A stretch of 64,000 bases of DNA from IMG/VR virus record IMGVR_UViG_3300045988_141624, positions 1-64,000 of that record; one strand, given 5' to 3'. The notes below the pieces were generated by a model. It worked only from the letters and a program-made list of their open reading frames with translations. It searched no databases and was not told where the DNA came from. Shown piece after piece: positions 5,004 through 38,300 of this stretch (position 1 is the first letter of the stretch; the number at the start of each line of letters is the position of its first letter). Both the position numbers and the translations under genes were made by a program. Origin of the DNA: a virus.

Positions 5004-6001
5004 GAGGAAAAGATTTAATGACGTTAGACAGTTTAGATTATGAAGCGCTAAACCGTCTAATTGAAGAAAAGAAAGAAATTACTTATAGACAATTGTGTCA
5101 AGAACTAAATATTCCGCAGCTCGGAGGCAGCTCTAAAATAAAACAACTAAATCAACTTGACGGCATTTGCGAATATGAAAAAAGGAATACGAAATATATT
5201 TTCTTAAGAATGCGAGATACAGAAGAAAGATTTTTGTTTAACAACAGAGCAATTTATGCGCCATATATTGAATATATTATTTCAGAGCTTTTTGCTAAAG
5301 AAGGGCCTCCGAATGATAATCTAATATTTTTCAACACAATGGAATTATTATATTGGTGCAACATGGTAAATAAAAATTTCAAACAAGTCAGATACGCAAG
5401 CGATTTTTCTAAAGTAGCAATTTGTGCGCTTAATGAGTTTAATTTAACTGATTTAGATTTCTTTGTGGATACGACATACGAAAAAATATTGAAACCTATT
5501 GTGCGCTCGGCACTTAAATCCATGGATAATAAAAAAAGCATTGTTATCAACAGAGGCTATAAACTATATTCCAAAACTCAAGACTGGATTAAGCATAAAA
5601 ATGTTCTCGCTACAAGCCCTGAAGGTAAAATTCTTGCTAAAATCGAGGCAGAATCTCTTACAGAATTAGGTATCAGAGGTATGACGGAACTCATGTTCTC
5701 TAAAAAACATTTGCTGCCAAAATATTATGCGCTCACAAGTCAAAAGTGTGAAGAACGGCTTGGATATGATGGATTCTATTCTTGTTATGCCATGATTGTG
5801 AACCCGAAAAGAATTAAATATAATATTGGCGAACTAAAGAAAGAGCTTAATGAAAAAATTCAAGCAAGAGTCTTGACCGCAAAAAGCCTGGACACTCTTA
5901 CAATGGTTAGCCGCAAAATGTTCATTGACTCAATGATTAATGATCGAACCCAATATGATTTCCAAAACGATGAGAACAAATATAAAAAAATCTTTGAATG
6001 A
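5000..6001 (+). CDS. Hypothetical protein (333 aa)
   Basis: Long ORF whose start overlaps the upstream stop. No family recognised. Confidence 0.6.
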   Translation: MRGKDLMTLDSLDYEALNRLIEEKKEITYRQLCQELNIPQLGGSSKIKQLNQLDGICEYEKRNTKYIFLRMRDTEERFLFNNRAIYAPYIEYIISELFAKEGPPNDNLIFFNTMELLYWCNMVNKNFKQVRYASDFSKVAICALNEFNLTDLDFFVDTTYEKILKPIVRSALKSMDNKKSIVINRGYKLYSKTQDWIKHKNVLATSPEGKILAKIEAESLTELGIRGMTELMFSKKHLLPKYYALTSQKCEERLGYDGFYSCYAMIVNPKRIKYNIGELKKELNEKIQARVLTAKSLDTLTMVSRKMFIDSMINDRTQYDFQNDENKYKKIFE

Positions 6002-9826: not shown

Positions 9827-10123
9827 TTAATAAACATACGGTTGACAGCATTTCAAAGAAACCCACCAATTTTTTCCATGTTTATCAATTCCTAAGTACT
9901 GCATGAAAGCGTTGACATGTCGTTGTGTTGTTTGTGACCATCCATTCCATAGTTTCTCAAACTCCCGTTTGTTTTTATCCCATTTACATATTAATGTAGT
10001 ATATGAATAGAGATAATAAGTACCGTGTCGTTCTAATAAGGTGCACTTATTATAGAATGATTTACGACCATCGACAGGTTTTAATTCAATTTTATTAATA
10101 AGTTTTCTCATTGTTTTTACCAT
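9827..10123 (-). CDS. Hypothetical protein (SY.T ... SQTTQRH motif)
   Basis: ORF with an RBS. It resembles the 8937-9266 product. Confidence 0.6.
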   Translation of the reverse strand: MVKTMRKLINKIELKPVDGRKSFYNKCTLLERHGTYYLYSYTTLICKWDKNKREFEKLWNGWSQTTQRHVNAFMQYLGIDKHGKNWWVSLKCCQPYVY

Positions 10124-10148
10124 CCTTTTTTTATTTTTTATAAAATTT

Positions 10149-10364
10149 TTACACGCGCAAAAAATCGCTTAAAAAATATTTTCTTCTATACCTATTAAAA
10201 TAAGCGTTGTCATTTGCGTCCCAAAAAATGCTGGTTGTTCGCACGCTTTCCTGTTTATCCATGTTATAAAAACACGATGTTATTTTATCCTCCTGTTCAT
10301 CTATCGCTAAAATAGCGATAGAGAATACGTTGGTCAATCCTTGTGCTGCGATTGGTTTTTTCAT
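10149..10364 (-). CDS. Hypothetical protein
   Basis: First ORF downstream of the leftward consensus promoter. The RBS is GGAGGT. Confidence 0.55.
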   Translation of the reverse strand: MKKPIAAQGLTNVFSIAILAIDEQEDKITSCFYNMDKQESVRTTSIFWDANDNAYFNRYRRKYFLSDFLRV

Positions 10365-10408
10365 TTTTTAATACCTCCGTTTTTTGTTTGTTCCTCTGAA
10401 CACTTTTA

Positions 10409-10436
10409 ATTATAATGATTTTTTTGTTTTTGTCAA
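10409..10436 (-). promoter_or_regulatory. Consensus promoter (leftward) for the 10364-to-8410 cassette
   Basis: On the minus strand: TTGACA (10436-10431), a 16-nt spacer, then TATAAT (10414-10409). Confidence 0.6.
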
Positions 10437-10949
10437 CACTTTTTTATAATTTTTTTGAAAATTTTTTATAGCCCCTTTATATATAACAAGGAATAAAATT
10501 ATATCATTTACATTTTTTTAATTTTGCAGCAAAAAACACTTGACTTTTTTATTCTACTTTGATATATTGACATTGTAAATTTTAATTCCGTTATAAAATC
10601 CAAAAGGATATAGGAAAAAATAAGCCTAAAAAGGTTGTTTTTCCTATATCCTTTTTTTATTGCACTTGTGTATAATTGTATATACATAGAAATGTATAAA
10701 ATTATATGTATAAAAATACAAACTATGCAAAATTCCTGCATAAAAAAATGTATATTTTGTGAATATTTTGCATAATTTTTAGGAGGCAAAATAGAAGATG
10801 GTAATAGCGAAACAAAAATTTTCCTGGGGCGAGGAAGATATGGTAATAGCGAAAATTAAAAATTCCACAGGAGAAATAATAAAATAACTATTGAAAAATT
10901 TTTAAAAGTGATATATAATAAAAACAAAAAAGAAAAGAGGTTGTGTTTT

Positions 10950-12007: not shown

Positions 12008-12823
12008 ATGATGAAAAAATATACAAAAGAAGACTTTGAAACATTCAAACGAGACGAACGCGGATGGCTAATCTGCCCTAGTGGGGATTATACAGAGATT
12101 AAAAAGTTCCCAAAGAGGTGTAAATTTGATGGTGAAAGCATATTCAGCAATTGGAGCAGATTCAGCGAGGAATGTAGATTTGTCAGCTGGTGTACCTTTG
12201 GATACAGGTGTAGTTTTGGTGAGAAATGCAGATTTGATAACAGATGTAAATTTGGTTTTTGTAGTAGATTCAGGGCGAGATGTAGCTTCGGCGAGACGTG
12301 TGTATTTGAAGAGAATTGTAGTTTTGGAGCTTGTTGTAAATTCGGAAATAGCAATATATTTCATGAAGCATGTATTTTTGACCAAGGCTGCATATTTGGA
12401 AAATATTGTTTGTTTTATAAAAAAAGTGTCTTTGGTTCTTACTCGAAATTAGGAGACGGCTGCGTTGTTAAAGAAGAATGTAGGTTTGGAAGAGATTCTT
12501 CTTTTGGGCGGGGTATTATTTTTGGACATAATTGTAAATTTGGTCTTAATGGTTTTTTTGATAAGCATTGCATTTGGGGCGAAAATTGTCTTTTCAATTG
12601 GACACCATATCAAACTAATAAATCACAGAGGGAGAAACAAATGAATGAAGAATTACAAAGTGCTTTCAATATTGTTGTAAAATATGGTTTTTGTGGTGAA
12701 TGTCGTTATAATTTAGATTCCAGATATTGCGAGGGAACAATGTGTTATAGAGATATGAATCTAATTCGAGACGCTTTAGAGGCGTTTTCAGAAAAGGAGA
12801 GTAATGAAAATGAAAAACTGTGA
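12008..12823 (+). CDS. Hexapeptide-repeat (CxFGxx) protein, copy 1 of a duplicated module
   Basis: About 25 consecutive 6-residue units, for example CRFDNR CKFGF CSRFRAR CSFGET CVFEEN CSFGAC CKFGNS. The N-terminus, MMKKYTKEDFETFKRDERGWLICPSGDYTEIK, is shared with the 15920 product. Confidence 0.75.
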   Translation: MMKKYTKEDFETFKRDERGWLICPSGDYTEIKKFPKRCKFDGESIFSNWSRFSEECRFVSWCTFGYRCSFGEKCRFDNRCKFGFCSRFRARCSFGETCVFEENCSFGACCKFGNSNIFHEACIFDQGCIFGKYCLFYKKSVFGSYSKLGDGCVVKEECRFGRDSSFGRGIIFGHNCKFGLNGFFDKHCIWGENCLFNWTPYQTNKSQREKQMNEELQSAFNIVVKYGFCGECRYNLDSRYCEGTMCYRDMNLIRDALEAFSEKESNENEKL

Positions 12824-13181
12824 AGATTGCAAATATTATGATGGATATGATTTTTGGAATGGAACAGTTTATTGTGAACGTAAAGGTGGATATGAAAACT
12901 GTCCGTATGATGACGAAACACCAATTAAAAATAATGGTGGTAAGATAGAAGTTGATGTTGGATTTATGCAAGATTACATCTATTACACATTAAAGAATAT
13001 AACAGAAAGAGAAATCATAGCCATTGCACAAAAAGAAATAAAATCTATTATTGCTGAAAACTTAACAGATAAAATCCTAGAGGATATGAGAGCGCAAATT
13101 AAAGACGTTGTCTCTAATTCAATATCTGAGACAATAGAAGATGAGTTGAAAGACAGATTTAAAAAAGAGCCAAACAGATGA
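12804..13181 (+). CDS. Cys-rich N-terminus plus coiled-coil protein, copy 1 of a duplicated module
   Basis: MKNCEDCKYYDGYD...YENCPYDDET.IKNNG.KIEVD.GFM.DYIY.TLKN aligns along its whole length with the 16518 product. Confidence 0.7.
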   Translation: MKMKNCEDCKYYDGYDFWNGTVYCERKGGYENCPYDDETPIKNNGGKIEVDVGFMQDYIYYTLKNITEREIIAIAQKEIKSIIAENLTDKILEDMRAQIKDVVSNSISETIEDELKDRFKKEPNR

Positions 13182-13303
13182 AGAAATTTAAACAAATTCT
13201 TAAAACAATATTACTTTGGATAGAATCAAGTTTATGTGTTGCATTTTTGTTGATTTTGTCTATAATAGGAATGAGTTGGTTGTTAAAATTATGGGGTGTG
13301 TAA
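13178..13303 (+). CDS. Small membrane peptide (41 aa)
   Basis: ATGA start-stop overlap with the upstream gene. Hydrophobic core LCVAFLLILSIIGMSWLL. It is below the ORF-track cutoff. Confidence 0.35.
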   Translation: MKKFKQILKTILLWIESSLCVAFLLILSIIGMSWLLKLWGV

Positions 13304-13565
13304 ATTGAGAACTAAGAAATGGATTTATATTTGTGACCACTGTGGGAAAGCAGAGATAGGAGGAAAATATAATTATTCTTTGCAGGCTTTTGAAGCCGCT
13401 CCAAAAGGTTGGTACAAATTAGGTCGCGAAGATTTGTGTCCAGAGTGTTATGAAATATATTTAAAATTCAAAAATGAAGTGAAAAATAAAGAAGTGAAAA
13501 ATGAAAAAGAAGATATTCTTACAAAAAATTGCACTTTTAGAAAAAACTGGCTGCGTTCAAATTAG
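13296..13565 (+). CDS. Zinc-ribbon-like small protein
   Basis: CDHC ... CPEC pairs. The start codon is uncertain (GTG 13296 or TTG 13305). Confidence 0.5.
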   Translation: MCKLRTKKWIYICDHCGKAEIGGKYNYSLQAFEAAPKGWYKLGREDLCPECYEIYLKFKNEVKNKEVKNEKEDILTKNCTFRKNWLRSN

Positions 13566-13604
13566 TAAATTTTGTGAAATTGATAAATTAAGGAGGCAAA
13601 ACTA

Positions 13605-14801
13605 TTGATTAAAATTGAAAATATTGATGTGTTTGGTTGGGAAGCAGCTATTCGTGGAATGCGTAATCCGATGAATAGTTGGGATAAGAGTGATAGCTGG
13701 AAATTTACGCATATGGACGCTTTTACTCAAGAACATCTTGGAGTAGGATTTCATATTGGTGAAAACGATCTTAAACTCATGAAATCACTCTCCAAAGCTG
13801 GCAACGACCATGCTAAGTTCTTGCGTATGATTAACGTAACGTGTGACATTACCGCTCCAAGATTTTGGTGGGAACAATTTTCGACATATCGTGTCGGGGT
13901 TGTGCAAAATAGTACGTCTACCATGCATCGACTGACGCATAAAGCTTTTGGAATAGAGGATTTTAGTTGTGAACATTTAAGAGGGTATTCTCCAACACAT
14001 AAAACTTTTATTCCTCCGTTAAGGGAAGATGAAGAAGTATGGCGAGTTTTCAACAATACTAATTATGAAGTTAGCAGCGAGGGTAGAGTTAAAGTTAAAT
14101 ATAATCAACATCATTTTGAAGACGGTAAACGAGGTTATTACGAACGAGAAATTGTAGGTTCCATACATAAAGATGGATATTTATTTGTAACAATTAAGGG
14201 AAAACAATATCCAAAACATAGACTAGTTGCTGAATTATTTATTAATAATCCATACAATAAACCGTTTGTTAATCATATTGATGGTAATAAACAAAATAAT
14301 CGTGTTGAAAATTTGGAGTGGTGTACACAAAAAGAAAATATTAAGCATTCTTATAAAACTGGTCTACAAGGAAAACCTGTTAAATCTCACCCCAGTAAAT
14401 TACTTCATTTAATTCCAGAAGCAAAAAAAATGTATTTAGAAGGATTGAGCAAAAGAAAAATAGCAAGTGAACTTGGTATTTCTCACCCTAGTGTAAGTTA
14501 TCTATTAGAATATGAAGAACCTAAAAATGAATTTAATGAATTATTAAAGACAATAGATAGGCTAAATATATTGAGAGAAGAGTATTTGGATACGAAAGAT
14601 AAAGTAGTATGGAGGAATATGATTGAACTGCTCCCGCAATCCTACAACCAAAAGCGCACGGTTCAGTTAAACTATCAAGTTTTAAAATCTATGTATTTTG
14701 CGAGACGAAATCATAAACTTGAAGAGTGGCATACATTCTGTGATTGGATTGAGAGTCTGCCATATTCAGAGTTGATTATCGAATGCGGAAGAGATAAATA
14801 A
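13605..14801 (+). CDS. Divergent ThyX-like (flavin-dependent thymidylate synthase fold) protein carrying an in-frame HNH endonuclease module
   Basis: The TTG start follows AAGGAGG. The flanks resemble the ThyX layout: GNDHAKFLRMINVTCDITAPRFWWEQFSTYR...NSTST, then LLPQSYNQKRTVQLNYQVL..MYFARRNHKLEEW. However, the RHRxxS motif is not conserved. Confidence 0.6.
   Translation: MIKIENIDVFGWEAAIRGMRNPMNSWDKSDSWKFTHMDAFTQEHLGVGFHIGENDLKLMKSLSKAGNDHAKFLRMINVTCDITAPRFWWEQFSTYRVGVVQNSTSTMHRLTHKAFGIEDFSCEHLRGYSPTHKTFIPPLREDEEVWRVFNNTNYEVSSEGRVKVKYNQHHFEDGKRGYYEREIVGSIHKDGYLFVTIKGKQYPKHRLVAELFINNPYNKPFVNHIDGNKQNNRVENLEWCTQKENIKHSYKTGLQGKPVKSHPSKLLHLIPEAKKMYLEGLSKRKIASELGISHPSVSYLLEYEEPKNEFNELLKTIDRLNILREEYLDTKDKVVWRNMIELLPQSYNQKRTVQLNYQVLKSMYFARRNHKLEEWHTFCDWIESLPYSELIIECGRDK
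14025..14520 (+). mobile_element. HNH (NUMOD4 plus HNH_3 plus HTH) homing-endonuclease-like module fused in frame inside the ThyX-like gene
   Basis: EVWRVF..NYEVSSEGRVK (NUMOD4-like), NHIDGNKQNNRVENLEWCTQKEN (HNH), and LSKRKIASELGISHPSVSYLL (HTH). Boundaries are approximate. Confidence 0.6.
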
Positions 14802-14837
14802 TACCTGATATTTTAAGCTAATAAAAGGAGAACAATT

Positions 14838-15038
14838 ATGATTAAATTTAATATTTCTATCTATTGCCAGGACTGTCCGGATTTTGAGCCCCAAGTAACC
14901 CAAAGACCAGAGCATATTAAATCAAATTATGGCGACTCATATTTTTATGGTGATACGCTTGTTGAGTGCAAATATCGGAATCGCTGTGAAACTATTTACA
15001 ATTATTTGAAAAAGGAGAAAAATAATGGCTCTTGCTAA
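14838..15038 (+). CDS. Small Cys-containing hypothetical protein
   Basis: The ATG follows AAGGAGAA. Confidence 0.55.
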   Translation: MIKFNISIYCQDCPDFEPQVTQRPEHIKSNYGDSYFYGDTLVECKYRNRCETIYNYLKKEKNNGSC

Positions 15039-15228
15039 GAAATGTGATCGTTGTGGACAATTGCATGAACATTATCCCCTCGGAAACCAGCCAGGGGTGT
15101 TTAATTCTATTGCTATATGTAGACGAAACGCAACCGGTACAACGGAATGCACAAAAACAGTTCTGGATTTGTGTCCAAATTGCATGGCGCTACTTGAAAA
15201 ATTTATTACGGAGGGAAAAACGACATGA
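15025..15228 (+). CDS. Small zinc-ribbon protein
   Basis: CDRC ... CPNC pairs. The RBS is AAGGAGAA. Confidence 0.55.
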   Translation: MALAKKCDRCGQLHEHYPLGNQPGVFNSIAICRRNATGTTECTKTVLDLCPNCMALLEKFITEGKTT

Positions 15229-15407
15229 TGCTTTCTTGTAATCGATTTGCGTTCGTTCCGCATTTATGCCTTGAATGCAAACGTTATATTTGGCTAGAAG
15301 GCTATAGAAAAGCAAAGGTCTGGAAGAAAATTTCAAATATGTACATCAAAGAAAATATTTGTAAAAGTTGTCTCACAAAATTTGATGTGATGACTAAAAA
15401 GGAATAA
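15225..15407 (+). CDS. Small zinc-ribbon protein
   Basis: ATGA overlap with the upstream gene. CLEC ... CKSC pairs. Confidence 0.5.
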   Translation: MMLSCNRFAFVPHLCLECKRYIWLEGYRKAKVWKKISNMYIKENICKSCLTKFDVMTKKE

Positions 15408-15422
15408 GAAAGGAGATTAAAT

Positions 15423-15875
15423 ATGATTATTGTTATTCTCGTCCTGGGTATTCTAATGGCTGTTTGGGGAATTAAGCTTGAACTCGATAAACCGATTGTT
15501 GGCGTTGCGTTTCAAATCATTGGTGCCGTTGTCAGCTTAGCCTCAATTATAGTTGTCGTTTTGTTGCTTGGATGTGTAATTGACCGAGTTGGCATTGATA
15601 AAAAAATAGCCATGTATGAGGAGGAAAATGCCGGAATCGAGCAGCAAATTACAGATGTGGTAAAGCAATATCAGGAATACGAAAGTGGTATCTTTAAAGA
15701 TATTGCTCCCGAAGGTGCTATGACACTTGTTACTCTTTACCCCGAGCTTAAATCCGATACTCTTGTCCAGTCTCAAATCGAGGTTTACATCGAGAACAAC
15801 AAGGCGATTAAAGAGCTTAAAAGCATGACTGTCAATGCGTCCTTTTATCGTTGGTGGTTATATTTTGGAAAGTGA
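15423..15875 (+). CDS. Membrane protein (two N-terminal TM helices)
   Basis: MIIVILVLGILMAVWGI and AFQIIGAVVSLASIIVVVLLLGCVI. The RBS is AAGGAG. Confidence 0.65.
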   Translation: MIIVILVLGILMAVWGIKLELDKPIVGVAFQIIGAVVSLASIIVVVLLLGCVIDRVGIDKKIAMYEEENAGIEQQITDVVKQYQEYESGIFKDIAPEGAMTLVTLYPELKSDTLVQSQIEVYIENNKAIKELKSMTVNASFYRWWLYFGK

Positions 15876-15919
15876 GAAATGAAAATGAAAGTCGATATAT
15901 ACACAAATAAGGAGATATA

Positions 15920-16492
15920 ATGATGATGAAAAAATACACAAAAAAGGATTTAGAAACATTTCAGAGAGATGAACAGGGAAGGTTAATCTGTCCCCACGGT
16001 GATTACACAGAGATTAAATTTTTCCCAGCGAGGTGCTGTTTTGCCATGGGAAGCACATTCGGTGAGCGGAGCAACTTTGGCCAAGAAAGTACATTCGGCT
16101 TGATGTGTGTTTTTGGCATGGAAAGCACCTTCGGCATGGGAAGTAGATTTGGAGGCGGGAGCAACTTTGGCGGGCAAAGCAACTTCGACACGGGATGTAG
16201 GTTTGGTAAATGGAGCCGCTTTGGCGAATTGAGCAGATTCGGCAAGGGATGCAGTCATGAAGGACTGACCAACAGCATATATGTGGCGGTTGACAGGATC
16301 GGCAGTGAGCTGCGGAAAACATATTTCTTCAAAGCAGAAGAGGGATACTTTGTCCGCGCCGGTTGTTTTTTCGGAACGCTTAATGAGTTCAAAACGAAGC
16401 TAAACAAAACGCACGGCGGCACAATTCACGAGATAACATATTTAATGGCATGTAATTTAGCGGTAAAATTGTTGGATTCGCAGTGGAAATAA
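15920..16492 (+). CDS. Hexapeptide-repeat (SxFGxx) protein, copy 2 of a duplicated module
   Basis: STFGER SNFGQE STFGLM CVFGME STFGMG SRFGGG SNFGGQ SNFDTG CRFGKW SRFGEL SRFGKG. About three quarters of the N-terminal 40 aa are identical to the 12008 product. Confidence 0.75.
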   Translation: MMMKKYTKKDLETFQRDEQGRLICPHGDYTEIKFFPARCCFAMGSTFGERSNFGQESTFGLMCVFGMESTFGMGSRFGGGSNFGGQSNFDTGCRFGKWSRFGELSRFGKGCSHEGLTNSIYVAVDRIGSELRKTYFFKAEEGYFVRAGCFFGTLNEFKTKLNKTHGGTIHEITYLMACNLAVKLLDSQWK

Positions 16493-17826: not shown

Positions 17827-18258
17827 ATGTTTTACTTATTTAATCAGAATAATTCAGGCGGCTCTTTTATTGTAAATGATAAAGTTTGTCATAGACTTTT
17901 TATTGAAGCTGATGACGGGAGAGAAGCACTCCGAGTAGCCGAAAGTCTTGGTTGCTATTGGGATGGCGTAAGCAAGGGTTTGGATTGTCCTTGTTGTGGC
18001 GATAGATGGAGTAGATATTACAATGAAATTGATATTAACAAATTTAAGAACGATGGATATGAGGTAAGTGTTTATGATAGTATTTATCATAATACTGTTC
18101 AAGAATGGGAAAAGAAATATGGTAAATTTACCATTGTTAAACAACCTCATTTTAAAAGTGATAAATATGGTAATTTTCGTTTATATGTTGGCTCTATCTC
18201 ATTCGCGTCCATTGAAGAATATGCGCAATATATGGCAAACTTTTTGTGGATGGATTGA
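17827..18258 (+). CDS. Hypothetical protein
   Basis: The ATG follows GGAGGT. It contains CPCCGDRW. Confidence 0.55.
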   Translation: MFYLFNQNNSGGSFIVNDKVCHRLFIEADDGREALRVAESLGCYWDGVSKGLDCPCCGDRWSRYYNEIDINKFKNDGYEVSVYDSIYHNTVQEWEKKYGKFTIVKQPHFKSDKYGNFRLYVGSISFASIEEYAQYMANFLWMD

Positions 18259-18298
18259 AACATTACCTTATGCAAAGGAACTGATTTGTCTTGAATGA
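18233..18298 (+). pseudogene. Second orphan remnant of the ThyX-like gene's 3' tail (out of frame with the 17827 gene)
   Basis: It translates as WQTFCGWIETLPYAKELICLE*, compare WHTFCDWIESLPYSELIIE. Confidence 0.45.
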
Positions 18299-27831: not shown

Positions 27832-30800
27832 ATGTATTTTAACAATCATGTTCATGATGAATACAGTAATGCTGCTTTAGGTTTTCCCGATGTAGTCAAC
27901 AAAGTAGAAGATGTAATTCAAAAAGCTTATGACTTGGGATTAAGTGGTATTGCAATTACTAATCATGAATGTGTTTCCTCACATATTAAAGCATTACAAT
28001 ATTATGAGAAAATGGAAAAAGACAGACCTTTTAAAATTGCTTTGGGGAATGAAATTTATTTAATGGACGAAAGTGAGGACGAAGAAAACAGAACAGAAAA
28101 AAGAACAGTTTATCCTTATTATCATTTTATTTTAACAGCTTTAGACACCTTGGGCCATAAACAAATCAGAGAGCTTTCAACAAGAGCTTGGAAAAGAGCC
28201 TATTTCTCTAGGGGTTTAATGAGGACACCCACTTATTATAGTGATATAGAAGAGGTTGTTGGACAAGAAAAAGGCCATATTATTGCCTCGACCGCTTGTC
28301 TTGGAAGCTTTTTAGATAAGATGATTTTGCAATGGAAAAATGGGGATAATACAGCAAAATTAGCTATTCATAGCTTCATAACGTGGTGCATTGATACTTT
28401 TGGTAAAGATAATTTCTTTTTAGAAATTCAACCATGTTATGAAGATAATGTAGAACAAGTGACAGTTAATTCAGCAATGAAAGAATTATCTAAAGCATAC
28501 AAACTAGGAATCATTCCTACTACTGACGCTCATTATTTAACAAAAGACATGGCTTTTGTGCATAAAACCTATCTAAATTCTAAAGAGGGTGAGCGAGAAG
28601 TAGATAAATTTTATGCCATGACTTATCTAATGGACGAGGAAGAATTGAGAACGTTTCTCAAATTGCAATTTTCCATTAAAGAAATAGATGAAATGTACAA
28701 GAATACGTTGTTAATTTGGGATAGAATTGAAAAATATGATTTACAACACAATCCTATTATTCCTCAAATTCCCGAAGAGAAGTTACCTCAATTTAAAATC
28801 AGACATTTGTTTAAGGAATGGTATTCTAAATATCCTAATTTTGCTTTTTATAGTAACAACGAGAGAACACTCCATGAACAATATTTCTTTTATCAAATTG
28901 AAAAAGGATTTGAAAAAAAGGTTTGTAATAGTGTAAAACCTAAGAATATAGAACAATATATAGCAAGATTAGATGAAGAATTTGAACAATTTCGCTTAAT
29001 AAGTGAAGCATTGGGTACATCTATCCCCTGTTATTTTAGCTCTATGTCCCGAATAATAGATATAATATGGGACATTGGTAGTTTAGTTATGCCAGGGAGA
29101 GGTAGTGCGGGTGCATGTCTTTCTTGTTATTTATTGGATATTACACAAATAGACCCCGTTCCTTTTGGTGATTATATGCCGTTTTGGAGATTCCTTAAAT
29201 AATTTTTTATCCTAAATCATTAAGACATGGATAAAAAATTTAGGGCCTTATATTAGGAATGATATAAGTGGAGACTGTGAACTATCTAACCAATAGGTGT
29301 GAGAATGTAATTCTTGCTAACGAGGAAAGTCTAAGGATGAAAATCTATGATAATCTCGTGCCAAGCCCTTTGTCAAGGAAAGGTGTAACGACTAAGCAAG
29401 CTGAATGTGGTTACAGCTTTAGCGCAGTCTACCCCAACTGAAATAAGTGGGTAAAGAAATAGTCTATCCCGCTATGGAAACATAGCGGTAGTGAGAAACG
29501 TACAACGCGGCGTAGAACTTCCAGATTAATAACATAGTTTGGCTATATGGTGACATATAGAAAATAAAGTGGCTAACCAGTGAAAGTGCTGGGTGTGAGG
29601 AAAATCCTTGCTAACAGTGAAAACCTTGTTCATCCTGAATCGTGAACATGGCGATACTGTGCCAAGTTTTGTATTAAAAATACATTAAAGGTGCAACGAC
29701 TAAGCCCCGTAGGGTGAAACTCCCCGCGGTTAATGCCACTCTCTCCAATTGGAGATGAAGATATAGTCTAAACCGACTGTTTATTCAGTGTTAAAGTATT
29801 GGGAATAAATAACCAACGGTATAATTGATTGACACAGATTCAGAATCATCAAAAAAGAATGAAATTGTTCAGGGTGTTGTAGATTTCTTTGGTGAAGATA
29901 GGGTGTTAAGCATTGCAACATTTTCTGCCTTAACCAGTAAAACGGCAATAGAGAAAAGCTGTAAAGGCTTGGGAATTAATAATGATACAGCTAACTACAT
30001 TAAAGCTATGATACCTATTGAGCGTGGTTTTACTTGGAGCTTAAAAGATTGTTTTGAGGGTGATTTGGAAAAGCAAAGAAAACCAATTCAAACATTTATT
30101 AATGAAGTCAACAAATATCCTAAGCTAAAAGAATGTGCTTTGGCTTTAGAAGGATTGATAACAGGAAGAAGCACTCATGCAGCGGGCATCTTAATTGGGA
30201 ACGAACCTTATACCAATTTCATAGCTGCAATGCGATCTCCCAAAGGCGATTTATGTTCTTGCTATGACCTAATAGACGCTGAACACTGTGGGGAAATTAA
30301 ATTTGACTTGTTAAAAACCAATGCAACAGATAAAATTCACACAACGTTAGATTTGTTACTTAAAGACAATTTAATTGAATGGCAAGGAAGTCTAAAGAGC
30401 ACCTATGAAAAATATATTCATCCCGATGTATTAGATTATGAAAACCCTAAAATGTGGGATATAATTAAAAATATATATAGTGTTTTTCAATTTGATACAA
30501 ATGTCAGTGTCCGCGCTTTAAATGCTACTCATCCTAAAAGCGTTATGGATTTATCTGCAACAAACAACCTGTTAAGGCTTATGTCTCAACCAGGACAAGA
30601 ATCTCCCCTAGATAAATATGCACGTTTTAAAAACAATATTAATGAATGGTATAATGAAATGGAAAGCTATGGGCTTTCTAAAGATGAACAAAAATGCTTA
30701 GAGGAATATTTAATTGATTCTTATGGACTAGCAGACAGTCAAGAAAAAGTAATGCGTCTAAGTATGGATAAAAGAATAAGTGGTTATACATTAAAAGAGG

Positions 30801-32710
30801 CAAACAAACTTCGTAAAAGTATTGCGCGGAAATCACAGAAATTACAAGAAGAAGCTAAGCAACAATTTTTTGAATATGGAGAGAAATTAGGCACCAGAAA
30901 AGAATTTTTAAATTATGTATGGAATGTTATTTTTGGTGCGTCATTTGGCTATGTAGAAATGGTCATGATTTGTGAACCTTACCAGGGGTGTGCTGTTATT
31001 TAACAGTGCTAACGGTATCAGCTGAATAAGACTGTTGTTCAAGAGTTACAACTAGATAACAACGTTAAAAAAGACGAAGCAGCTGACTAAGAAAATCTAA
31101 GGTCTATGTAAAATAGATAGCTGACAATACCGTGCGGTTTCTTATGAGGTCGTGTAGAGACTATTCCGATAGGAAGTACACTAACTATTGGTACGTTGGT
31201 GGAAGTGCAAATCTATAACAAATTTTGTTATAAAGATATAGTCCGATGGATTAATATGAAAATTCATATGTTGTAGAAATACAAAAATCCACTCGATTCC
31301 TTCTCCCAAATTCATTCAACCTCTTATTCTATTATCGCCCTACAAGAATTAAATCTTAATTATTATTACCCCTCAGTCTATTGGAATTGTGCTTGTTTAA
31401 CAGTGGAAAGTCAATCAGACGATGACACAGATAAAAGAACAGCAATAGATTATGGCAAAATGGCTCGCAGTATTTACAAGATGAAACAACATGGTATTGA
31501 TGTTTTGCCTCCTTCTATCAACAAATCCAATATTTCTTTTACACCCAATAAAGAAAACAACACTATTTTGTTTGGATTAGGTGGTATTTCAGGGATAAAC
31601 AATGAAGCAGCTAGAGAAATAGTTAATAATCGTCCATATAGTTCTTTTGAAGATTTCTACAACAAAGTTCAAAAGAATAAAAATACGTTATTAAAAAATC
31701 AAAAAATTATAACTTTAATTAAATCTGGTTGTTTTGATGAGTTTGATACTAGCAGAACAAATATTATGAAACAATATTTTGCTTTAATGTATGAACCAAA
31801 AGAAGAGTTGACTTTGCAAAATATGAGCAAAATATTAGAGTATGATATTCCTGTTCCCGAAGAGCTATTAAACCCTTATTTGTTAAGTAAACAAATAAAA
31901 CAGAAAAAGAATTTCTATAAAAACGATGAAAAAGCTAAGAGTAAAAAACATTATAGAGTGCCACATGATTTACAAAATGATTTATTAATTATGTTCCCTG
32001 AATTAAAAGAAGATGTTGATTATTATTATGATAGTGACATAATGATAATTATTGATAAAGCTTTAGACAAACAAATGAAAAAGATTAATGAAAAAATTAA
32101 AGAGTATATTACACAGGATAAAGTAAAGGATGAGTTTAATTCTAGGGGTAGAGAGTTGTTATACCATGAGAACATAAAACAAGAAAATGAATTGCAATGG
32201 GCTTTTTCTTCCACGTCTTTTTATCCAAACAATGAACATGAATTAAATAACATTGATTGTGATAAATATAATATTATTGATTATAATCTTTTACCAGAGA
32301 ACCCTGAATTTGAAACTAAGTATTATGTTAAGAAAGATGGTGAAGAGGTTGTTTGGAACCAATATTATCTTTATAGAATTTGTGGTACAGTAACAAGTAA
32401 GGATAAAAATAAAAGGACAGTAGATATTTTGACTCCCACCAATGATGTGGTAACAATTCGTTTAAATGATGAAGTTTATACTTATTATGAACAAAAAATA
32501 TCTGAGGGCACAGATACAAATAAAACCGTAATTGATGATAGCTGGTTTACAAGAGGAAAAATGTTATGTGTTGTAGGATATAGACAAGGGGACGGGTTCA
32601 GAGGAAAAAGATATAGAAGCTCAATTTTCAAACATACAATTATGTTAATAGAAAAAGTAAATCAAGACGGTTCTTTAGAGTTAAGAACAGAAAGAAAAAT
32701 AAAAGACTAG
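27832..32710 (+). CDS. dnaE: DNA polymerase III alpha subunit (PHP plus polymerase core), interrupted by three group I introns. Exons: 27832-29195, 29496-29526, 29828-30950, 31296-32710.
   Basis: PHP motif HVHDEYS, plus GRGSAGACLSCYLLDITQIDP. Spliced joins restore FWRFL-NVQRGVELPD-IDTD and GY-SFSQIHS. The exons sum to 3933 nt, which is 1311 codons. Confidence 0.85.
29196..29495 (+). mobile_element. Group I intron (PolIII intron 1, no ORF)
   Basis: The 5' exon ends in U and the insert ends in G. Core-like strings ttgctaacgaggaaag, ctcgtgccaag, gtgtaacgactaagc and aaatagtct. It is a paralogue of the next intron. Confidence 0.75.
29527..29827 (+). mobile_element. Group I intron (PolIII intron 2, no ORF)
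   Basis: The exon end ccagaU can pair with the intron sequence gtttgg (P1-like). Core-like strings ttgctaacagtgaaaac, ctgtgccaag, gtgcaacgactaagc and gatatagtct. It ends in G. Confidence 0.75.
30951..31295 (+). mobile_element. Group I intron (PolIII intron 3, no ORF)
   Basis: It splits GY|SFSQIHS. It contains agatatagtccga. The 5' exon ends in U and the insert ends in G. Confidence 0.7.
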
Positions 32711-35398: not shown

Positions 35399-38300
35399 TT
35401 GTCAAAGTTATTGGAAAAATATCAAGAACAATATAAGCCTTATGTAAAGTTTATTGATTCTTATCGTAAAGCTTCCAATGCAGCTAGTGGTAGTGAAGTA
35501 GACTCTAACGCAAATGTAGAGAATAAAAACATTACCACTTTACAAGGAGAACTAAACAAAAAAGAAATTATTGGAACAAATCGCACTCTAATGATTGAAA
35601 AACTTACAGAACTGTATGGCGAAGAAACCGCAAAAGAATACATTCGTCAACTTGAGGCCCATGAAATTTATAAACATGATGAAACCAGTATTATGCCGTA
35701 CTGCGTTAGCATTACAATGTATCCTTTCTTATTCGATGGGCTAACCAACATCGGTGGTTTATCTACGGCACCCAACAATTTGGATTCTTTTTGTGGGAGC
35801 TTTGTTAATTTAGTATTTGCCATTGCTTCTCAATTCGCAGGAGCAGTAAGCACACCAGAGTTTCTAATGTATATGGATTATTTCATTAGAAAAGAATATG
35901 GAAATGATTATTATTTAAAACCTGATTCTGTAGTATCAGCCATTGGTAGAAAAAGAACTATTCATTCTGTTATTCATGATAAGTTCAGCCAAGTTGTTTA
36001 TTCATTAAATCAACCAGCTGCCGCAAGGAATTTTCAAAGCGTAAACTAAAATGCGCCTATATGTAGTAATAGATATAGCAAACTCCTTTAATTTCTGGGA
36101 AATCTTATTATAATTATAGTTTTATCATTCATAATAAGACAATCAGAAGCGAAGCCCTATAAAGGGAACGTTCAACGACCATTGCGAAAGCAAGTACACT
36201 ATAAGCGTTTGATAGTGGAAATGGGGAGTATCCTTTCAAAGGATAGTGATATGGTCTACTCTTTATGGTGACATAAAGCAGTTCATAAGAGAACGCATAC
36301 AACGTAGCGCATTGTATGGAATACAAGGGTTTTGGAATATTGCTTATTTCGACCAACCTTATTTTAACGGTATGTTTGAAGATTTTGTTTTTCCCGATGG
36401 TTCTGAACCTTGTTGGGATAGTGTGAATTGGCTCCAAAAAGACTTTATGAAATGGTTTAATGCAGAAAGATTAAAAACAGCTACATCGTTCTTATCTTTC
36501 CCTGTTGAAACTGTTAATCTTTTGGATAATGGGACAGATTATGTGGATAAAGAATGGAAAGATTTCACAGCACAAATGTGGGCAGAAGGACATTCATTCT
36601 TCTGTTATAGAAGCAATAGTGTTGACTCGTTGGCATCGTGTTGTAGGCTCAGAAACGAAATTCAAGAAAACACGTTCTCATTTACGTTAGGTGCCGGAGG
36701 TGTGTCTACAGGTTCTAAAGGCGTTATTACCATTAACATCAATAGATTGGTGCAAAATGTTTATAAAAAGAATCCTCACGCAACATTAAAAGATATTTCT
36801 AAAACTGTTAGAGAACAAATTCATAAAGTACATTGTTACTTAACAGCATTTAATGAAATTATAAAAGATAATTTTAAATCTAAAATGCTTCCTGTTTATG
36901 ATGCAGGATATATTGCTTTAGAAAAACAATATTTAAGTTTAGGTATGTAATTTAATGCCTTACATTGCTTTTCCAGTTATCGCTGGGGTACTAAGGAGTG
37001 CTAACGAGGAAACCTGACTACCATAAGGTAAAAGGCAATCTCGTGGGAAGGAAGTTTTTGTATGGAAATTTATATGATTCAAAATGATATTAATAATATG
37101 GTTTATATAGGACAGATAAATAATTCAAAACATAGGTTGAAGCAACATGTTTCAGCAGATTTATTAAAAAGACTGTTTTATTCATTGAAATATGAACAAG
37201 ATAAAACTATGACTCAAATCGCTAGAGAGTATAAAATTGACATAAGTCAACTGAATAAAATTAACCAAGGACGCGACCACAGGGTTGATTGGCAAACATA
37301 TCCTGTTAGAAAAGGCAAAGTATCCAATCCGTTATACAAACATGCTGAGGAAATAAGAAACTTGCTTAAAAACACAGATATTCCACAAAAAGACATAGCC
37401 AGAAAATTTAATGTTTCTGTTTCCTCGGTGCGTGCTATCAATAAGGGGAGCTATTATAGAGATAATAAACTATCTTATCCTTTAAGATATAATTATCAAT
37501 GCTATAATAGTGGAAGAACCGCTCTGTCTCCTAGTGAGGTTTGTGAAATAGAAGAGAAATTAAAAAACACTAATATTTCAATGCGCTCCATTGCTGCGGA
37601 ATACGAAATCGCATTGACAACTGTTACAAATTTAAATATTGGCTCAATAAAAAAATATCGTAAAGAATCATTAAATTATCCATTGCGGAAACTTTAACCT
37701 GTATCGACTATCCTCGCATAGAGGAGTAAAAAAACTATTGATACGTTTTTTGAAATGGCAATGGCACTATCAAGGGATAGTAATTAAGAAATAGTCAGTT
37801 CTATTAGAAATAATAGGTTAAACGATTAACGGTTTTCTTGAAGGGGCAGAATTTTTAGGCATTGAGATTTCACCCAATGAGGAATATTTTGCCTATGGTG
37901 AAGCCATTCTAAAACCAATCTACGAAGAAAACAAAAAAGATAAAACATCAGAGATTATGTTTAACACGGAGTTCGTGCCTGAAAAGAGTGGGCACTAAGT
38001 AGGATAATCCATAAACTACTTATAGGAAATTTTCTTTAATTGACTCGGAAATCCAGAGGTGGACAACGAGGGGCAAGTTTAAATACAGCCTGAACGACTA
38101 AATAAGAAAACTTCATAGGAAATTAAATGAAGGTGCAATAGTCTGAACTCATATACAACCTAACTAAAGTATGAGAAAGAAAGTCAGATGTACAGACATC
38201 TTAAAGAAGAACTTTCTTCGCCAAGCTATCTTGGTCATTAAAGTAACAGAATTGGCAGAAAATCTCGGTGTTAAAAATGCAAAATGGGATAGAGAAGATG

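Follow-up and report, generated by a model that had tools for sequence, protein, structure and literature searches.

To our knowledge, the textbook view is that homing endonuclease genes persist inside other genes only by way of self-splicing introns or inteins, and otherwise lie between genes. Here we analyze a locus in a 64,000-nucleotide (nt) stretch of virus DNA (positions 1 to 64,000 of the IMG/VR virus record IMGVR_UViG_3300045988_141624; hereafter the window), where a single open reading frame (ORF) at 13605..14801 (+) encodes the two halves of a protein predicted to have the ThyX fold and, between them, what appears to be a complete HNH homing endonuclease. An earlier note, made from the letters of the sequence alone, had read this ORF as an endonuclease domain inserted, unspliced, into a host protein. 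Our analysis supports that reading and extends it with evidence of mobility: the element is probably an unspliced, in-frame, mobile HNH homing endonuclease domain, with no start or stop of its own, situated in a variable hairpin of a ThyX-fold phage protein.

Among the cases in the accounts cited here, the ShiLan domain and the fusions of fungal rps3 with LAGLIDADG genes come closest. ShiLan was described, with the Pacc40 insertion, from DNA methylases of actinobacteriophages, where it is reported to be actively homing (Arsenault, Gosselin & Gogarten 2025, PMC11855218). ShiLan shares with the window element a stop-free in-frame insertion in a phage gene, the lack of a detectable intein or intron, a disjunct distribution that points to homing, an HNH cargo, and an insert predicted to loop out of the host protein. 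In ShiLan, however, the HNH is read from another frame, between a GTG start and a TAA stop that belong to it, and translation in the host frame gives a meaningless loop (PMC11855218), whereas the HNH of the window is read in the host frame, has neither start nor stop of its own and would be a folded internal domain of the chimera. The hosts differ as well, being a methylase of Mycobacterium phages in one case and a ThyX-fold family of gut Clostridia-type phages in the other. The window locus therefore shows the stop-free, disjunct, intein- and intron-less insertion of the ShiLan type and lacks the alternative-frame HNH with its own start and stop.

A "lone LAGLIDADG" lies in frame in the same methylase family as ShiLan and appears to be vertically inherited (PMC11855218), and some fungal mitochondrial rps3 genes have a LAGLIDADG gene joined to them in frame (Gibb & Hausner 2005; Sethuraman et al. 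2009; as summarized in PMC7902536). As these sources present them, both resemble the window element in that a homing endonuclease is in frame with host coding sequence and brings neither an intron nor an intein. Their domain is LAGLIDADG rather than HNH, rps3 is organellar, and we liken them as in-frame fusions, not as internal insertions between two functional halves. HNH inteins also carry the HNH in frame, but together with splicing domains (bioRxiv 10.1101/2025.01.02.630785).

Free-standing endonucleases offer a second set of comparisons. The Seg and Mob endonucleases of T4, and mobE, which splits nrdA in Aeromonas phage Aeh1 (PMC2790892, PMC3045599, PMC2988022), are of the stand-alone type, as is the module found here. 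According to these reports, such intronless homing places the gene at a poorly conserved landing site beside a conserved target and proceeds by double-strand-break repair with co-conversion of the flanks, so that carrier flanks differ from those of targets, and the window locus has similar features. The T4-type genes described there have their own starts and stops and are intergenic or split the host gene into two polypeptides, whereas the frame in the window runs through. I-HmuI (PDB 1u3e), the HNH nicking endonuclease of Bacillus phage SPO1, has the same domain order, with an N-terminal beta/NUMOD4 region, an HNH core and a C-terminal helix-turn-helix, but it is encoded by a separate ORF within a group I intron and the window insert has no intron. 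The "dUTPase" of Staphylococcus phage IME1318_01 (locus L164, KY653116.1 13613-14536) was considered as a parallel case and set aside, because its NUMOD4-HNH fusion is N-terminal and not internal; this 307-residue coding sequence is an example of a terminal endonuclease-enzyme fusion annotated under the name of the host gene. What sets the window locus apart is an HNH domain that, as read from the sequence, is in the same frame, start-less and stop-less, lies between both host halves and recurs across many gut-phage alleles.

An HNH endonuclease module in the reading frame of a phage gene

The fusion ORF comprises 398 codons and a stop. It begins with TTG, and 8 nt upstream is the Shine-Dalgarno sequence AAGGAGG (13590..13596, +), the sole good ribosome-binding site 5' of the HNH coding part. 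In an alignment with protein P0002, its closest empty allele, the ORF has an insert at nt 13992-14507 (+), which is 516 nt or exactly 172 codons (codons 130-301) and consists of a linker followed by the NUMOD4-HNH-helix-turn-helix endonuclease. On its 5' side is the N-terminal half of the host protein (codons 1-129, 13605..13991, +), which aligns with positions 7-120 of phrog_6721 and contains the degenerate ThyX-motif region TYRVGVVQNSTSTMH; on its 3' side are the C-terminal half (codons 302-398) and the stop codon (14508..14801, +). Without the insert the host protein has about 225 residues. The PHROGs family phrog_6721 (218 positions, annotated as unknown function) was matched in two stretches, either side of strong HNH-family matches. 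Because Pfam, PHROGs and PDB-sequence matches agree on an HNH module flanked by phrog_6721 halves, we regard the anatomy as real. The earlier note had described the same uninterrupted, stop-free ORF and the same anatomy, and both stand; its boundaries for the insert, at residues ~141-305, are a little off and are replaced by those obtained from the comparison with insert-free homologs that it had proposed.

Within the insert, Pfam NUMOD4 matches residues 144-197 (14034..14195, +; E 3e-5, 24.6 bits, gathering cut-off 23.4) and HNH_3 matches residues 203-245 (14211..14339, +; E 1.4e-10, 41 bits, cut-off 24.8). In a PDB sequence search, the catalytic core was aligned with I-HmuI (1u3e, E 1.6e-8) over VNHIDGNKQNN...NLEWCTQKEN, and its motif residues H224, N228, N236 and N245 do not vary among 19 aligned carriers. 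A C-terminal helix-turn-helix DNA-binding module is placed at residues ~269-301 (14409..14507, +), where the helix-turn-helix models score under their cut-offs and helices are predicted at 263-302. Foldseek aligned the insert with I-HmuI at an E value of 2.6e-6 over 186 columns, 1u3e having 174 residues. Free-standing phage HNH genes are ~40% identical to the insert over 85-94% of its length, and they begin exactly at the NUMOD4 motif, which in the insert has not kept a start codon of its own. Judged from sequence and predicted structure, the insert is a complete HNH homing endonuclease module of the I-HmuI/NUMOD4-HNH_3 type, with both the HNH motif and the accessory DNA-binding modules, and the earlier description of a stand-alone-type endonuclease in frame was well founded.

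Only the host frame is open through the insert; the other two frames contain 10 and 30 stops. Compared with the carrier contig L166, the insert has seven synonymous and four nonsynonymous changes (omega 0.13), compared with L167 pN is 0.15 (nonsynonymous) and pS 0.76 (synonymous), and omega is 0.16-0.40 against distant lineages. By these codon-level measures, the host frame of the insert is coding and under purifying selection. Both host halves of carriers are also open, with omega of 0.08-0.47 even for distant carrier pairs.

We looked for internal restarts from which the HNH or the C-terminal half could be made on its own, and no candidate has a credible Shine-Dalgarno sequence. In the five carriers examined, the NUMOD4 region is not preceded by a Shine-Dalgarno sequence with an ATG, GTG or TTG in frame, and a GGAG 4 nt before M339 was dismissed as a ribosome-binding site because the conserved W-R-N-M codons force it. 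As no such start was found and the free-standing relatives begin at NUMOD4, the endonuclease has lost its own start and stop, and we infer that it can apparently be made only as part of the chimera.

Empty alleles, carriers and the insertion site

Homologs were sought with the spliced host sequence, from which the insert had been removed. At least 8000 relatives were found, most of them 210-240 residues long with no insert and no Pfam domain, whereas ~19 of the best 120 are 378-401 residues long and contain HNH_3 or NUMOD4. Since most homologs are without it, the middle region is foreign to the host family, and the objection that the earlier note had raised against its own reading, that homologs might show the middle region to be native, fails. 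In IMG/VR, the best 80 loci for an insert-free profile all lack the insert (80/80), a profile of this kind ranking contiguous matches first and so returning only empty alleles. Carriers in IMG/VR were therefore sought with a carriers-only profile, most of whose 80 loci were unrelated free-standing HNH genes, and with DNA patterns.

At least 23 metagenomic carriers were identified, 19 as proteins and four from DNA, all of them single ORFs with the insert in the same loop. In each of the four IMG/VR carriers found from DNA, the N-terminal half, the HNH and the C-terminal half are in one frame, and the C-terminal half is in frame in 23/23 carriers. Their inserts are 30-98% identical in amino acid sequence to that of the window and form at least three lineages (A, B and C) in the protein alignment, with a very divergent fourth in L086 (439 residues). 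Frame and openness are kept across lineages that are just 30-50% identical. Recurrence in at least 23 independent metagenomic proteins or contigs shows the arrangement to be neither chance nor an assembly artifact. Megablast of 13000-15500 against GenBank phages gave no match, and hence no sequenced phage is close.

In every long protein the extra segment falls after DFS(C/H)EHL and before LNxxRExYL, and the loop between these motifs is of variable length in the short proteins. A model of an insert-free homolog places the insertion site in a beta-hairpin (residues 127-137) before a long helix. At the nucleotide level, no part of the gene is less conserved than the insertion point, which is rich in indels and scores ~0.2 bits per nt; it is bracketed by highly conserved blocks (1.3-1.7 bits) located ~10-45 codons off each side. 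The insert is thus predicted to sit in a variable, tolerant surface hairpin, on the basis of the insert-free hairpin and of low-confidence linkers in the full-length model. This geometry resembles that of free-standing phage endonucleases, whose poorly conserved landing place lies beside a conserved target, and is unlike that of introns and inteins, which sit in the most conserved motif.

Several other alleles of this family were observed during the searches. The best viral structural match to the insert-free model is BFVD A0A8S5MTU4 (Siphoviridae sp. ctb1k4, "Uncharacterized protein" in UniProt), with a template modeling (TM) score of 0.86 normalized to the query and 0.54 normalized to the target, and 51% identity; at 365 residues it is much longer than the family norm and is probably another insert carrier. 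Locus L088 (IMG/VR 3300045988_071221) has an insert-free ThyX-like gene at 5042-5317. A free-standing, related HNH gene follows ~1.3 kb downstream, is read in another frame, and may be a free-standing relative of the inserted element. Two metagenomic proteins, P0018 and P0021 (305 and 310 residues), have no HNH; their C-terminal ~50 residues are tandemly duplicated (..SYEVLANIYKSRRNHKLDEWHTFCDWIESLPYSELITGG.. occurs twice), a further sign of frequent recombination at the ThyX-like gene.

Mosaic alleles and co-conversion of the flanks

The empty allele P0002 is located at 10001-10684 of a 58.5-kb contig, L001, which is syntenic with window positions 5381-25673 at ~92% identity and so provides an insert-free allele on the same backbone. 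The two ends of the gene are nearly identical between the window and L001, with one mismatch in 201 nt over codons 1-67 and one mismatch in 150 nt over codons 349-398. Between them, at nt ~13807-14648, the alignable codons are only ~55-60% identical, and the 516-nt insert lies inside this stretch. The reverse pattern is seen with L166, a carrier (P0003) on another backbone: the N-terminal 73 codons are 50-69% identical to those of the window, whereas nt 13827-14626 are 97.5% identical (20 mismatches in 800 nt). Furthermore, L166 and L165 (P0043) are 84-100% identical in their N-terminal backbone, yet one has a type A and the other a type B insert.

From the comparisons with L001 and L166, we delimit an imported patch, or co-conversion tract, at 13807..14648 (+), which comprises the insert with ~186 base pairs (bp) upstream and ~141 bp downstream of foreign host-gene flank. 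Because the gene is a mosaic, with ends near-identical to L001 and a patch shared with L166, the sequences indicate that the insert moved between alleles together with its flanks, that is, by homing with co-conversion. Sporadic presence at one site, an empty allele in a close relative and flank co-conversion are all found here, and the window insert is demonstrably mobile, which goes beyond what the earlier note had proposed.

The flanks carry a further signature. Residues at window protein positions 110, 111, 114, 116, 323 and 335 split the 23 carriers from 76 empty alleles almost perfectly, and they do so for every insert type. Immunity to cutting and mere hitch-hiking are both candidate readings of these carrier-specific residues.

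A host family with the ThyX fold and without the ThyX sequence signature

The model of the insert-free homolog has a predicted local distance difference test score (pLDDT) of 88.8 and a predicted TM score (pTM) of 0.81. In a Foldseek search of the PDB it gave 147 matches at E≤1e-3, among them the ThyX proteins of T. maritima and H. pylori at E ~8e-7 (best 7.7e-7) with TM scores of 0.59-0.66, and phage ThyX models in BFVD were matched at E ~1e-5. ThyX is also matched by the two halves jointly in the full-length model, which has a pLDDT of 78 and linkers of low confidence at 131-134 and 255-265. The host family has the ThyX fold according to these models, in agreement with the earlier view of the two halves as parts of one ThyX-fold protein; with ThyX of T. 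maritima (TM0449) it shares the whole-chain fold (TM ~0.6, E ~1e-6) and a similar length.

Sequence comparison gave a different picture. Pfam Thy1 (PF02511) has no match in the window protein at E≤1 and matched 2/45 family members tested below threshold (best E 0.0099), and a profile of 45 insert-free members found nothing among PDB sequences at E≤10. With hhalign, TM0449 (sequence checked against 1kq4) was matched at E 0.12 in one block only, in which AGNDH...APLYW pairs with HGHETPFEH...APIFV of TM0449. Kinship with ThyX is therefore demonstrable by fold alone. NCBIfam has no match or name for the host family, and in GenBank phages of Clostridium, Enterocloster, Clostridioides and Fusobacterium the protein is labeled hypothetical.

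The ThyX motif RHRxxS...SxR corresponds to the deoxyuridine monophosphate (dUMP) and flavin adenine dinucleotide (FAD) contacts R78, H79, R80, S88 and R90 of TM0449. A gap-free extension of the hhalign block places T/Q-Y-K/R at the RHR position and C-S-T (T-S-T in the window) at S88-G89-R90, so that Cys104, in the motif NSCSTMH, stands opposite ThyX Ser88. In a register that comes from this weak alignment, the motif appears not to be kept in the host family. The replacement of RHRxxS that the earlier note had seen in the window gene thus holds for the whole family (TYKVGTVANSCS in empty alleles) and not for this gene alone. All 76 empty alleles have Cys104, where the window and 78% of carriers have Thr. 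On the strength of the models, the host is an unnamed ThyX-fold family, related to ThyX by fold only and differing from Pfam Thy1 in having neither significant sequence similarity nor RHRxxS...SxR; we do not class it as a thymidylate synthase, and the earlier designation of the host as a metabolic enzyme is not borne out.

Alternative explanations

The most serious alternative is that the insertion inactivated a dispensable host gene, so that the chimera is only a vehicle for expression and the host halves are kept by repeated homing into fresh alleles. It gains its weight from the change of Cys104 to Thr in most carriers and from a host family that has no assigned function, and the relic of a second ThyX-like gene at 18233-18296 suggests that the gene can be lost. 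We nevertheless hold it to be improbable, since the host halves of carriers remain open and constrained even between distant carriers, and since the C-terminal half, which the endonuclease would not need, is in frame in every carrier.

Part of this explanation also bears on the preferred reading, that of an unspliced, mobile domain in a host protein that still folds, and several points weigh against that reading. Repeated homing into fresh alleles could maintain the host halves without selection for function, and the loss of Cys104 means that in carriers the host part may have a changed function or none. The carrier samples are either biased to long intact ORFs (the protein database) or small (the four loci found from DNA). 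All carriers may stem from a single ancient insertion, in which case "always in frame" would be one frame persisting; the apparent homology between the linkers of types A and C makes this possible, and for the same reason we dropped an argument from several independent in-frame insertions. Lastly, a splicing or proteolytic step of unknown kind may act, and the size of the chimera, its nuclease activity and its cleavage site are predictions.

Another explanation is that the HNH is an immobile domain, domesticated and vertically inherited within a protein subfamily, such as one that targets the ThyX-fold enzyme to DNA. A conserved catalytic motif, purifying selection on the insert, its fixed position and a fusion without separate expression signals would all be expected of such a domain. 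It is hard to reconcile with a near-isogenic genome that has an empty allele and gene ends of ~100% identity, with a 97.5% identical patch inside a gene whose backbone is 50-69% identical, with different insert types on the same backbone, or with carriers that are a scattered minority, and we rate it as quite unlikely.

Phage group I introns often house HNH genes, as the I-HmuI intron does, and three group I introns are present in the DNA polymerase III alpha and nrdD genes of the same genome. A self-splicing intron that has escaped recognition, be it of group I, of group II or of a new kind, was also considered; its endonuclease ORF would by coincidence share the frame of both exons. A search of 12500-16000 with Rfam gave no match even at E≤10, whereas at gathering thresholds Rfam found the three Intron_gpI matches elsewhere in the window at 52-84 bits, so that the phage of the window uses introns and Rfam detects them. 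The absence of a group I core, which the earlier note had deduced from the letters, is upheld by this control. The 516 nt of the insert are wholly protein-coding under purifying selection in the host frame, which leaves no non-coding ribozyme core, and frame and openness persist across lineages that are 30-50% identical. Most group I introns have an in-frame stop shortly after the 5' junction (PMC3073962), whereas there is none here and the frame is continuous in 23/23 carriers. An intron is very unlikely for these reasons.

An atypical intein or other protein-splicing or self-cleaving element, from which the HNH would be excised post-translationally and the ThyX-fold halves ligated, is equally remote: the insert is in frame and stop-free, as inteins are, and phage inteins with in-frame HNH domains exist (bioRxiv 10.1101/2025.01.02.630785), but no Hint or intein Pfam family is found in the fusion protein at E≤1, the I-HmuI-like NUMOD4-HNH-helix-turn-helix module accounts for all 172 codons and leaves no space for a ~130-residue splicing domain, no conserved junction Cys/Ser/Thr nucleophile or His-Asn is present across insert types A-D, and the site is a variable loop rather than a conserved active-site motif. 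The earlier note had likewise seen no intein signature at the junctions.

Other mobile elements and neighboring genes in the window

The other endonucleases and introns of this genome are in classical arrangements. The DNA polymerase III alpha gene (27832-32707, +) is in three ORFs (27832-29199, 29825-31000 and 31403-32707). Its first gap contains two group I introns (Intron_gpI in Rfam; 29223-29487 and 29535-29788), 47 nt apart, and Rfam gave no match for its second gap (31004-31402). A third Intron_gpI (36033-36278) interrupts the anaerobic ribonucleotide reductase gene nrdD (+) between 35399-36046 and 36246-36947, and a GIY-YIG endonuclease ORF with a helix-turn-helix is found downstream of nrdD (37062-37694, +).

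Closer to the fusion gene, a frame at 18233-18296 (+), after the ORF at 17827-18258, reads ...WQTFCGWIETLPYAKELICLE* and is what is left of a second, diverged ThyX-like gene, namely its final ~21 residues. This relic directly follows a DUF7296-like gene, and in L001 a DUF7296-like gene is immediately upstream of the intact ThyX-like gene. The relic and the gene order of L001 together point to a duplicated or rearranged block in which the second copy has been mostly deleted. Two further ORFs, 12008-12823 and 15920-16492 (+), are paralogous, with near-identical N-termini (MMKKYTKEDFETFKRDE...) and bodies composed of Cys-rich short repeats of the CxFGxxCxF type.

Proposed mechanism and implications

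We propose that translation would begin at the host TTG start with its AAGGAGG, and that the endonuclease would be made as an internal domain of the 398-residue chimera and be removed at neither the RNA nor the protein level. During mixed infections or phage-prophage encounters, the nuclease would cut or nick insert-free alleles in the conserved coding sequence beside the loop. Recombinational repair from the carrier allele would then copy the insert with ~150-200 bp of flank per side, copying of this kind being recorded in the mosaicism of the window gene. Carrier-specific substitutions in the nearest flanks may protect carriers from being cut. Folding of the host protein is probably still possible, because the loop tolerates insertions and both halves stay in frame, and such tolerance would replace the need for an intron or intein.

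More tentatively, and with somewhat less than an even chance of being right, we suggest a third, splicing-free lifestyle of homing endonuclease genes within genes that are essential or useful, as folded internal domains in tolerant surface loops that are expressed only within the host polypeptide. The ThyX-fold::HNH chimera, probably a tetramer with four nucleases, would in that case work as a host protein and be the active homing enzyme as well, and such fusions may be common in gut-phage metagenomes. If so, they would be hidden there as "hypothetical protein" or under the names of host genes.

The locus makes a case, at the level of sequence, for exceptions to the rule that homing endonucleases within genes depend on introns or inteins: a complete HNH in the host frame that has spread with its flanks and been kept through deep divergence. 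It also points to a large unnamed phage protein family with the ThyX fold and no ThyX motif. Its empty and filled alleles and its several insert lineages make it a tractable system that could address whether an enzyme embedded in another protein is able to home, how far the ThyX fold tolerates insertion, and how chimeras seed new multidomain proteins. The in-frame HNH insertion complements the recently described ShiLan-type insertions as a rarely documented way for homing endonucleases to live inside genes.

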